A stretch of DNA of 64,000 nucleotides, taken from Alphaproteobacteria bacterium (GTDB lineage Bacteria; Pseudomonadota; Alphaproteobacteria; Rs-D84). Below, piece by piece: positions 21,617 to 23,717 of the stretch; the first letter of the stretch is position 1; each line of letters opens with the position of its first letter. The stretch lies in NCBI GenBank assembly GCA_017505705.1, contig JAFVOS010000011.1:45449-109448 (forward strand), read 5' to 3'. A model generated the notes under the pieces. That model had not been told where the DNA came from. It ran no database searches and saw only the letters and a list, made by a program, of their open reading frames with translations. The position numbers and the translations under genes are program-made.

Positions 21617-22665
21617 TTAATTGGTATAATAACAAGCTGTCGTTGCCTTATAGTATCCATTTTCCCCTACAATATTCGTTGTATTTGTTGGTAAATAGCA
21701 ATCCGTCACCGCATCGGATCCAGCGGCCGATGTCTGTTTACCAGTACTGTGTGTCGGACATGATGAACATGCATTTGGTAGCGTACCATAATACCCCGCT
21801 TTACACACACAACTTGCCGTACTACCATCATGCACACTGTTTGCGCACCCTGTCCCATTTGTATCACACGAAGCCCCACCATACTCCACCGGGCAACCAT
21901 ACAATATAACACCATAACAGTTTGTTGAAGTCGCACTCGGTCGCATCGTCACCGTTGATCTATAATAACAACTGGTGGTTCCAATACAACTATTATTTCC
22001 ACATACGGACCCTTTCGAACTTGGAGCAGACGGGTTCGTTGATGTTATATCTTCCATTCGCCACGCCTTATAATACTTTGCACCACCACTCCCCAATAGA
22101 GCCGCTCCATTATTCAGCAAAGCACAAGGAGAATAGCTATTATATGTTGAAAAACTAGCCCCAAAATCATCCGAATGCAACTTTCCATCACAATCCCAAC
22201 ACACCGTATCAGATCCAACCTTTTCTGTAGCACTTCCATATCCCGATGCACACGCATAAGATTTAGTTTTTCCCTTACATATAGTCGAATGAGAGCTCGG
22301 GGACGGATCTGTCACTTCTTCAAAACAATATAAGGAAGCGTTAGCAGAAGTATACGAAGTCGTCACCAGATGATTAGCATTTGTGGTTGATGTTTTTGTA
22401 CAACTCGGACAAATACAATGCGGTGCTTGCCCACCAGCGGAAACAAGCCCACCGCCACAGCTCTGACATAAACACTTGTTTGTATATGTTGTGCCTCCTA
22501 ATACAACTGTTCCACATGCAACGCTACCACCACCACAATAATATGTTGCATAATTAGCACAATCTGTTTGAGCCGTAGCGACCGTACAGGCTACCAAACT
22601 ACCCGAAGATATCCCCCATGCATTATCACACAATATCAATCCCAGAAAGAATATAAATTTTTTCA
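21617..22665 (-). CDS. Cysteine/Thr/Ser-rich secreted protein, paralog 1
   Basis: Start set to MKKFIFFLGLIL (RBS AGGGGGAAATA). The six-frame ORF extends to 22750. Signal peptide present. About 40 Cys. CxCxxGYYG motif (SCVCKAGYYGT). The C-terminal ~45 aa are identical to paralog 2. Confidence 0.6.
21688..21816. repeat. ~129 bp near-identical DNA tract shared with 22751-22879 (3' ends of the two paralogs)
   Basis: The tract ttggtaaatagcaatccgtcaccgcatcggatccagcggccgatgtctgtttaccagtactgtgtgtcggacatgatgaacatg... is identical through ...ccgctttacacacacaacttg except for ~6 positions. Flanking DNA is diverged. Confidence 0.85.
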
Positions 22666-22682
22666 TTATTTCCCCCTGTGTT

Positions 22683-23717
22683 TTATGATACATATGGACA
22701 TGATGCCTCGGCATCATATTCACCGGTTGAATCACTGGTTGATGTACCACTTGGTAAATAGCAATCCGTCACCGCATCGGATCCAGCGGCCGATGTCTGT
22801 TTACCAGTACTGTGTGTCGGACATGATGAACATGAATTTGCCGCCGTACCATAATACCCCGCTTTACACACACAACTTGTGCCTGATTTTACAGCATATG
22901 TACACCCGGTCCCACTGGTGCTGCATGCCGTACTGCCGTACGTATCCGGACACCCCTTTAAAATAATACCTATACAATTTCCGCTGTAATCTTTGGTAAC
23001 GTTTTTCGACGCATAATAACACGCTGACGTACATGGCGTACAATACGACGTTGATACTGTCGGCGCAGAACTAGTAAACGAACCAGTGTTTAAATTTGCC
23101 GCTTTGAACATACCGTTGCCAATAAGATTCGTAGACGGATTACTACAATTGGTTCCTACAAAAGTAACCGGGGTTGTTGTGGCGGTCAAAGTCGAAAAAT
23201 ACAGTCCACCCGTACATGAATAACATTTTGAGGTACTGGTTATACTGGCTGTCGCCGCCCCATATCCCGATGCACAGCTGTATGTCTTGGCCAGACCCGA
23301 ACAATATGACGATAATGTTTTGGGAGTTGATGATGTTATTGATGGCAAACAATAGGCACTGGACGAACTGGAATACGACGTCGTCACCAAACGTGTCGAC
23401 GTATTGATTGAATCAGATGACGTGCAATTCGATTTAGCACAACCACACCCCAGAATTTTTCCATCTGTTGATCTTAATTGGGTTGTAATACCACTGCCAC
23501 ACGACACACAATAACACTTGTTTGTATATGTTGTGCCACTGTATGTAAATGATCCACAGGAAACAGCTCCCCCCGAACATGCCTGGGTTGCGAATGTTGC
23601 ACACGCTGTTGAAACTGTAGCGGTCGTACAAGAAACATTTAAAATTGCATGCGCATCATATGTCCCAAACGCCATACAAACCGCCGAAAAAAAACCGACG
23701 TTTTTTTTAGGCAGCAA
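22683..23717 (-). CDS. Cysteine/Thr/Ser-rich secreted protein, paralog 2
   Basis: 344 aa. Signal-like N-terminus VGFFSAVCMAFGTYDAHA. Shares N-terminal CTTATVSTACATFATQACSGG...GTTYTNKC and C-terminal SCPTHSTGKQTSAAGSDAVTDCYLP blocks with paralog 1. Confidence 0.6.
   Translation of the reverse strand: MLPKKNVGFFSAVCMAFGTYDAHAILNVSCTTATVSTACATFATQACSGGAVSCGSFTYSGTTYTNKCYCVSCGSGITTQLRSTDGKILGCGCAKSNCTSSDSINTSTRLVTTSYSSSSSAYCLPSITSSTPKTLSSYCSGLAKTYSCASGYGAATASITSTSKCYSCTGGLYFSTLTATTTPVTFVGTNCSNPSTNLIGNGMFKAANLNTGSFTSSAPTVSTSYCTPCTSACYYASKNVTKDYSGNCIGIILKGCPDTYGSTACSTSGTGCTYAVKSGTSCVCKAGYYGTAANSCSSCPTHSTGKQTSAAGSDAVTDCYLPSGTSTSDSTGEYDAEASCPYVS
22751..22879. repeat. Second copy of the ~129 bp near-identical tract
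   Basis: See 21688-21816. Confidence 0.85.

Follow-up and report, generated by a model that had tools for sequence, protein, structure and literature searches.

What could two adjacent genes for extremely cysteine-rich proteins be doing in a gut alphaproteobacterium? The question is raised by a pair of minus-strand paralogues on contig JAFVOS010000011.1 (GenBank assembly GCA_017505705.1), lying in a stretch of 64,000 nucleotides that is called the window in the following. All coordinates are positions in the window unless another sequence is named. The two genes are:

22683-23717, minus strand: gene B, the upstream paralogue, 344 aa, TTG start, stop codon included (open reading frame (ORF) list and composition).
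21617-22666, minus strand: gene A, the downstream paralogue, 349 aa, ATG start, stop codon included (ORF list and start-codon analysis).

The genes belong to an undescribed, lineage-restricted family and are under diversifying selection between close strains. With a probability of roughly 55%, their products are exported disulfide-scaffold proteins in which a constant C-terminal handle is combined with variable exposed loops.

Tandem minus-strand paralogues with signal-peptide-like N-termini had been described in an earlier note, which was made from the sequence alone, and both ORFs were found to be real. The proteins align over their full length with 40% identity (BLASTP, E=3e-67). The cysteine content had been overestimated at about 40 per protein: A and B contain 30 Cys apiece (8.6-8.7%), 29 of them past the predicted signal peptide. 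Ser and Thr together make up 34% of B and 25% of A. The common N-terminal block (CT.ATV.TAC...GTTYTNKC.C.SCG.G) and C-terminal block were recovered in all six family members aligned; among these, which are 45-88% identical, 27 Cys columns show no variation.

For the analysis of selection, the window was compared with L001 (NCBI metagenome-assembled genome (MAG) GCA_052845195.1) and with two independent ENA assemblies, L002 and L003. Non-synonymous (dN) and synonymous (dS) divergence was estimated pairwise according to Nei-Gojobori with bootstrap 95% intervals, and the threonyl-tRNA synthetase (ThrRS) of the same contigs served as the control. The ThrRS of the window and of L002 are 99.8% identical, with a dS of 0.042 and a dN/dS of 0.04, yet for B and for A the protein identity between the two is only 87%. 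The values obtained for the pair were:

Window vs. L002, gene B: dN 0.074, dS 0.036, dN/dS 2.06.
Window vs. L002, gene A: dN 0.082, dS 0.033, dN/dS 2.46.
Window vs. L003, gene B: dN 0.063, dS 0.030, dN/dS 2.12.
L002 vs. L003, gene B: dN/dS 2.45.

The bootstrap 95% intervals of dN/dS span 1.1-6.5 and all exclude 1 (lower bounds 1.10-1.29), with binomial p values of 0.011-0.046 per pair. Measured against the ThrRS control, omega is above 1 and both genes are under diversifying selection, which is a new result of this analysis. Neither a raised mutation rate nor import from diverged paralogues is the cause of the dN excess, because the pair and its neighbouring genes have the same dS. None of the 29-30 Cys differs between the strains, and the replacements are found in the inter-Cys loops. 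Over the longer distance to L001 the dN/dS is 0.21, a value to be expected where constrained scaffold sites come to dominate.

Relatives of the pair were searched with two profiles, A1 for the full-length family and A2 for the C-terminal module, the latter including both window modules. A word-indexed search of 5.8 billion proteins returned four relatives. The exhaustive hidden Markov model (HMM) search of 1.84 billion representatives resulted in 76 matches, about nine of which are full-length (plus fragments), while at least 65 others cover profile positions ~265-341 only and do so at their own extreme C-terminus. These module-only relatives have a median length of 205 aa, with 8.4% Cys and 22% Ser+Thr. 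A hydrophobic signal-like N-terminus could be identified in 57 of 66 superfamily representatives, and the smallest members are precursors of 75-116 aa (~55-90 aa mature, 5-8 Cys). All named module-only relatives are annotated as 'hypothetical protein [Alphaproteobacteria bacterium]' and come from MAGs. No relative was found in the GTDB species-representative genomes scanned with the family alignment. No homologue turned up when 50,697 phage and 72,556 plasmid records were searched by tblastn, and a role as mobile-element cargo is not supported. In the literature on Enterousia/Rs-D84 and on bacterial Ephrin_rec_like domains, no description of the Cys-rich family was found.

The segment shared by the whole superfamily corresponds to the following positions of the pair:

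22686-22868, minus strand: C-terminal module of B, ~60 aa, putative Ephrin_rec_like-type core with a terminal Cys-bounded hairpin (alignment A2).
21620-21805, minus strand: C-terminal module of A (alignment A2; hmmsearch with the A2 profile, E=6e-18).

The consensus of the module is C..GYYG-(5-12)-C..CP-(7-10)-TS..G.T.IT.CY.P.GT..SD.TG...YT..CYY..-COOH. Six columns of the module alignment are invariant (five Cys and one Gly), and 45 of 70 proteins end exactly 4 residues after their last Cys. AlphaFold2 predicted the module of B with a mean predicted local distance difference test score (pLDDT) of 92.3, as four short strands that are compact without a ligand. For full-length B, modelled from a 6-sequence alignment, the pLDDT was 41 and the model is usable for residues ~28-100 only (pLDDT ~75); this N-terminal domain is confined to the small full-length family. 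Foldseek with the full-length model returned nothing below E=2. The antigen-family-like character proposed in the earlier note is borne out by the dN/dS of 2.1-2.5 between strains together with the large superfamily sharing a common C-terminal module.

The Cys spacing had been compared in that note to EGF, laminin-EGF and GCC2_GCC3 modules and to protist surface antigens. The GCC2_GCC3 type (now Ephrin_rec_like, PF07699) holds by way of intermediates and not for the window proteins themselves. The isolated module of B scored 6.5 bits (E=9.7, profile positions 14-48), which is below the gathering cut-off of 23.1 bits. Among 63 homologous terminal modules, 20 match PF07699 at E<=0.01 (best 4e-6), and other families are not comparably represented. 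The minimal members P0079, P0086, P0087 and P0091 (111-116 aa) reach 28-36 bits against the same cut-off, and P0079 is found by the A2 profile at E=9e-16. Transitive homology through these intermediates gives indirect support to the window module as a divergent Ephrin_rec_like type.

The spacing C..GYY..(n)..C..CP..(n)..G.T/S..(n)..C is the same in both, and the known Ephrin_rec_like proteins carry extracellular Cys-rich repeats. The module differs from them in forming a sizeable family in gut Alphaproteobacteria, where it is always placed at the extreme C-terminus, and in adding the hairpin CY.P.GT..SD.TG.F.YT..CYYSN after unrelated variable N-terminal parts. PF07699 is described as essentially eukaryotic and as having arisen early in the eukaryotes, and its rare, isolated occurrences in bacteria are put down to horizontal gene transfer (PMC6993872). 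With the present family, this Cys-rich domain type, usually regarded as eukaryotic, gains a sizeable bacterial branch.

In a circular MAG of 958,618 bp (L013, OZ007020.1), the slot behind TatA encodes a secreted protein of 187 aa, three stretches of which are of the Ephrin_rec_like type (13286-13921 of that locus). It reaches 23.9 bits, just over the cut-off, and ends in a different, non-Cys tail, so the terminal hairpin is not present on all Enterousia Ephrin_rec_like proteins.

The other domain types were not recovered for the window proteins. Profiles of EGF and laminin-EGF did not match A or B, and in relatives the matches to EGF_3, cEGF and EGF_Teneurin remained sub-threshold (E 0.006-0.02). 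The Giardia VSP profile (PF03302, cut-off 31.4 bits) did not match them either; the best relative scored 22.9 bits (E=5e-5). The NCBIfam scan of eight relatives gave nothing. The minimal members also have sub-threshold matches to TNFR_ELAPOR1_6th, NCD3G and TNFR_c6. With the TNFR/ELAPOR/NCD3G domains the module may share a small, Cys-dense beta-hairpin fold, in addition to these weak profile matches of its relatives; its top structure matches are OX40 and the Cys-rich region of T1R2, both non-significant. PDB sequences gave no match with the A1 profile and chance matches to a LIM domain (E=1.8) and NrfH with the A2 profile.

The signal peptides of A and B were judged by hand, using hydropathy and the AXA rule:

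23646-23717, minus strand: Sec signal peptide predicted for B, MLPKKNVGFFSAVCMAFGTYDAHA, cleaved after AHA.
22613-22666, minus strand: Sec signal peptide predicted for A, MKKFIFFLGLILCDNAWG, cleaved after AWG.

The N-terminus of B consists of MLPKKN, the hydrophobic segment VGFFSAVCMAFG and ..AHA|I, and the hydrophobic segment is conserved in the L001 and L003 orthologues. In A, MKK is followed by FIFFLGLIL and ..AWG|I, with a hydropathy of up to 3.2 over 9 residues; its orthologues have AWA, AFA or AFG at the cleavage position. Both N-termini, with hand-read n-, h- and c-regions and the AXA site, fit the Sec/signal peptidase I pathway, the start of B being uncertain. A lipoprotein reading of A was rejected, as its lipobox is atypical (L-I-L-C, Leu at -1) and LPAM_1 matches at E=0.34, below the cut-off; in B no lipobox candidate was seen. 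The C-termini are ...CPYVS and ...CYYTN. No transmembrane anchor could be identified in either protein, the maximal 19-residue hydropathy outside the signal-peptide region being ~1.2.

An uncharged N-terminus of the unusual type MPN(P/L)NVG(F/L)... was observed at 23692-23717 (minus strand) of the window, at 6825 of L001, at 9301 and 13180 of L036 and in P0030, P0039 and P0065. The version in gene B is LLPKKNVGFF. The two L036 copies are alike even just 5′ of the Met, which hints at a common 5′ element or a special signal-peptide type.

Which organism carries the pair could be narrowed down by the ThrRS of the window. Several 'Candidatus Enterousia sp.' MAGs have a ThrRS with 97% identity to it, and for many gut 'Alphaproteobacteria bacterium' MAGs the identity is 77-95%. 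In the NCBI taxonomy, Enterousia is placed in Alphaproteobacteria incertae sedis. A 2025 study assigns Enterousia to the order Rs-D84, whose genomes are mostly <1 Mb and have neither a tricarboxylic acid cycle nor a respiratory chain, with few standard transporters, and it has been proposed to live as an obligate symbiont or parasite of an unknown partner (PMC12306168). The lineage is widespread in animal and human guts, and its secretome is mostly labelled 'hypothetical'.

In 80 ThrRS-centred loci, module-bearing ORFs were found in Enterousia-like genomes only. They occupy two variable slots around ThrRS-SPOR-TatA, namely the HlyIII-ThrRS gap and the position after TatA. The window has the pair in the HlyIII-ThrRS slot and a TatA-rpsT gap of only ~96 bp. 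In L001 the pair lies between TatA and rpsT, and a different module gene of 283 aa occupies the HlyIII-ThrRS slot. Single members were found elsewhere, with P0005 in the rpsK-rpoA junction (L085, 10001-11008), P0083 in the pnp-rpsO junction (L089, 10001-10279) and P0009 next to enolase. Such junctions are normally tight housekeeping regions, and rpsD is expected between rpsK and rpoA. The family is multi-copy, with three members in 20 kb of L087 and two in 17 kb of L088.

Taken together, these properties make the family a concrete candidate for the surface by which these bacteria interact with a partner: it is lineage-restricted, multi-copy and apparently exported, has a constant module, shows diversifying selection at the strain level and is found in variable slots between housekeeping genes. 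The reading of A and B as exported scaffold proteins with a constant handle and variable loops can be spelled out as follows. The genes would form a two-gene operon of a Candidatus Enterousia-like gut alphaproteobacterium. Both products would leave the cytoplasm via Sec, their signal peptides being removed after AHA in B and AWG in A. In the mature proteins, small cysteine-knotted modules would be strung together, presumably stabilised by disulfides, with the Cys fixed and the loops variable. The last ~60 residues would form a divergent Ephrin_rec_like/TNFR-type module capped by a Cys-bounded hairpin, with 4 residues left between the end of the hairpin and the C-terminus. Within a large superfamily of small, apparently secreted proteins restricted to this lineage, the module is the constant part, and it may serve as a common handle for envelope docking, for recognition at an export step or for binding of a target common to all. 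The loops of the N-terminal and central parts, which vary, may be the exposed surface that meets a changing contact, such as the surface of a host or partner cell, antibodies or phage, and this outside pressure would drive the amino-acid diversification between strains. The gene structure, the paralogy, the conversion tract, the distribution of the family and its module, the transitive relation to Ephrin_rec_like and the dN/dS above 1 are established by the data, whereas we infer that the proteins are exported, disulfide-bonded and exposed at the surface, what the module does and what exerts the selection.

Several observations weigh against this reading. Full-length A and B have no significant match in Pfam or NCBIfam and none to PF07699 at E<=10. 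Their localisation rests on sequence read by hand, and neither protein has a transmembrane segment, a lipobox or a known sorting signal for crossing of or attachment to the outer membrane. The TTG start of B is not preceded by an obvious Shine-Dalgarno sequence, and if the internal ATG at residue 15 were the start, B would be left without a signal peptide. The TTG is backed by L003, where an ATG occupies the corresponding position, and by the hydrophobic stretch conserved in the diverged L001 orthologue. A search for CxxC motifs did not reveal a Dsb-type oxidase in the 64-kb window, where only cytoplasmic thioredoxin and thioredoxin reductase candidates were present; since the lineage also lacks a respiratory chain, oxidative folding is unproven. 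Finally, the dN/dS values rest on 45-62 non-synonymous versus 7-9 synonymous differences per pair, from three strains for B and two for A, estimated by Nei-Gojobori only and with binomial p values of 0.01-0.05 per pair.

The combination of a predicted signal peptide with a Cys scaffold, lineage restriction and a dN/dS above 1 is similar to the small secreted Cys-rich effectors of fungi and oomycetes, which are lineage-specific and fast-diversifying (dN/dS >1) and have no annotated domains. The pair differs from these effectors in its prokaryotic host and its conserved C-terminal module.

A further step beyond the scaffold reading can be suggested tentatively and with little confidence. Rs-D84 (Enterousia) may have an undescribed surface-display system in which the module is the handle for sorting or anchoring. 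Dozens of variable-headed, cysteine-knotted proteins in each ~0.9-Mb genome would make up a fast-evolving coat by which these metabolically dependent cells attach to, or hide from, a eukaryotic or bacterial gut partner. Such a coat would be a bacterial counterpart of that of Giardia. Like the Giardia VSPs, the window proteins are Cys-rich (CXXC), Thr/Ser/Gly-rich, apparently secreted proteins of an anaerobic gut organism, belong to a multigene family and combine a variable N-terminal with a conserved C-terminal part. In contrast to the VSPs, the window proteins have no transmembrane anchor or CRGKA tail and a bacterial host, and the one-at-a-time expression switching of the VSPs has no counterpart in evidence here.

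A different identity, as released toxins, bacteriocin-like peptides or signalling ligands that act on competitors or a partner cell and diversify in an arms race, is unlikely for A and B. A dN/dS above 1 is typical of toxin families too, and the smallest superfamily members, with ~55-90 aa and 5-8 Cys in the mature form, have the size of disulfide-rich toxins and defensin-like peptides. The mature window proteins, however, with ~320-330 aa and a very high Ser/Thr content, resemble extended surface proteins more closely. In addition, no gene for immunity, processing or dedicated export was found beside the pair or beside P0005, P0009, P0079, P0083 and P0090, and no match was obtained among PDB toxin sequences.

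The cysteines could also bind a metal (Zn or Fe) in place of forming disulfides, in which case A and B would bind metal or buffer redox state in the periplasm or at the surface of an anaerobe. CxC and CxxC pairs do recur, as in CVC...CSSC, no Dsb gene was found in the 64-kb window and the lineage is without the respiratory chains that normally re-oxidise DsbB. Zinc binding has been reported for the Giardia VSPs. Diversifying selection on the loops would be unexpected for a metal store, however, and the related Ephrin_rec_like/TNFR-type domains are extracellular disulfide domains. AlphaFold2 gives a confident compact fold without a ligand, and the sole match to a zinc domain (LIM) is at chance level. 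Overall, metal binding is regarded as improbable.

Decay under relaxed constraint, with the genes as debris of a birth-and-death process and the high dN/dS as a sign of lost function, is very improbable and is contradicted by the data. It would account for the A-type copy of L001, which is split into three ORFs (7908-8177, 8108-8347 and 8377-8946 of that locus) and is either a pseudogene or the result of assembly frameshifts, as well as for the movement and loss of the family between close species. Relaxation, however, leads to a dN/dS near 1 and not to 2.1-2.5 with bootstrap lower bounds above 1. Each Cys is conserved, the predicted signal peptide and the module are retained, and A and B are intact in the window and L002, as is B in L003, whose sequence ends inside gene A.

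The scaffold reading also includes a homogenising process, which acts on the module core of the two copies. A near-identical 129-bp tract near the 3′ ends of the genes had been reported in the earlier note, and alignment at the DNA level returned exactly these coordinates with 96% identity:

22751-22879, minus strand: conversion tract, B copy, encodes TSCVCKAGYYGTAANSCSSCPTHSTGKQTSAAGSDAVTDCYLP (repeat D1, codon statistics, identity matrix).
21688-21816, minus strand: conversion tract, A copy (same evidence).

The tract is a direct repeat with 124 of 129 nucleotides identical and a perfect run of 84 nt, compared to a longest perfect run of 23 nt in 10,000 permutations of the aligned columns. 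At identical residues the same codon is used in 39 of 39 cases inside the tract and in 61 of 112 outside, where 51 differ (Fisher p=5.6e-9). The encoded peptide is (A/T)SCVCKAGYYGT..N.CSSCPTHSTGKQTSAAGSDAVTDCYLP; the final ~20 residues past the tract are diverged between A and B. When the copies in A and B from the window, L002 and L003 are compared, tract identity amounts to 92-98%, for orthologues and paralogues alike. The adjoining 180 nt upstream show an identity of 92-94% for orthologues and of only 46-57% for paralogues, which agrees with the statement that the rest of the genes is diverged and rules out an artefactual duplication of whole genes. The L001 paralogues have 53% nucleotide identity in the tract and keep the peptide motif; the dS between the ThrRS of L001 and the window is 0.69.

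The homogenised tract is the result of gene conversion, as had been proposed, and not of an artefact, because it is present in two independent assemblies and missing from the more distant relative. Codon statistics and the phylogenetic pattern across the window, L002, L003 and L001 agree on this. Its presence in the window, L002 and L003 and absence from L001 show that the exchange postdates the split of the L001 lineage. Mosaic sharing of variants, with GAG (Glu) in L002-A and L003-B and TCA/GCA spread across paralogues, suggests more than one conversion event. A second candidate tract of 24 identical nucleotides encoding GTTYTNKC was rejected, being within the permutation range (maximum 23). 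An assembly or collapse artefact, for which the metagenome-type source would speak, and purifying selection on what is the family's most conserved peptide are both refuted, since the identity is confined to the 129 nt and recurs in L002 and in gene B of L003, and peptide constraint cannot erase synonymous differences or explain the 53% in L001, where the motif is kept.

Gene conversion between the tandem copies would keep the core of the constant module identical. Exchange of segments between paralogous surface-protein genes by non-reciprocal recombination is known from Anaplasma msp2/p44 and Neisseria pilE/pilS. There, variable cassettes enter an expression site and generate diversity, whereas here a constant module is homogenised and the diversity of A and B comes from point substitutions elsewhere in the genes. 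The conversion tract alone is a small, ordinary feature of tandem paralogues. Of greater interest is its context, a fast-diversifying unannotated family in what would be a partner-dependent gut bacterium.

For the transcription and translation of the pair, the following signals were found:

23824-23852, minus strand: sigma-70-like promoter candidate TTGCCA-17-TAGAAT 5′ of gene B (consensus scan, 10/12 matches).
22667-22682, minus strand: B-A spacer of 16 nt, with the Shine-Dalgarno-like sequence GGGGGA 5 nt 5′ of the ATG of gene A (direct sequence reading).
21591-21608, minus strand: terminator-like hairpin CCCCCATTTTTTTGGGGG, GC-rich and followed by a T-run, 9 nt past the stop codon of gene A (consensus scan).

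The putative promoter is the best promoter-like site of the region and is identified by its consensus match only. Together with the Shine-Dalgarno-like sequence before A and the terminator-like hairpin after it, the simplest reading is that B and A form a bicistronic unit. A mechanically assigned GTG start of gene A at 22750 would result in an overlap of 68 nt with gene B. The ATG at 22666 is the likely start, as it is preceded by GGGGGA and the orthologue P0004 has an equal start. The gene B orthologues P0001 and P0002 are 87-89% identical.

Upstream of the pair lies a gene for an HlyIII-family membrane protein (23862-24599), and upstream of this one for a class-I Glu/Gln-tRNA synthetase (24596-26173). 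The ThrRS gene (19665-21398) is located downstream. The sequence CTGCCTAAAAAAAA (minus strand) was found at the very start of gene B (23692-23714) and in a second copy 85 nt upstream (23777-23799; repeat D5), just past the -10 box of the promoter candidate. The GC skew of the window is strongly and uniformly negative, with values between -0.07 and -0.34 in each 2-kb bin, and the minus strand carries most of the long ORFs, which is consistent with a single replichore read against the leading strand.

Three further observations were made in the window and its relatives. At 12232-13584 (minus strand), the window contains a second Cys-rich protein with a signal peptide, 451 aa in length with 25 Cys and, close to its C-terminus, a hydrophobic stretch; neither Pfam nor NCBIfam gave a match, and the protein is unrelated to the pair. 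In several Enterousia MAGs the HlyIII-ThrRS slot holds a small Cys-rich protein without a signal peptide (L001 1489-1761, L005 8999-9761, L009 9306-9767, L051 7679-8038), which is missing from the window. It is 90-154 aa in length, with the motif ..CCxGCxxxCxLS.. and the C-terminal sequence C(R/H)K.CKHSK(M/V/L)R. In L087, a related alphaproteobacterial MAG (GCA_949291275.1, CASEUW010000006.1), a Microviridae/gokushovirus-like prophage with genes for Phage_F capsid, Chlamy_scaf, REP_ORF2-G2P and Phage_ORF5 was identified at 12600-18400, ~2.4 kb from the module gene P0090.

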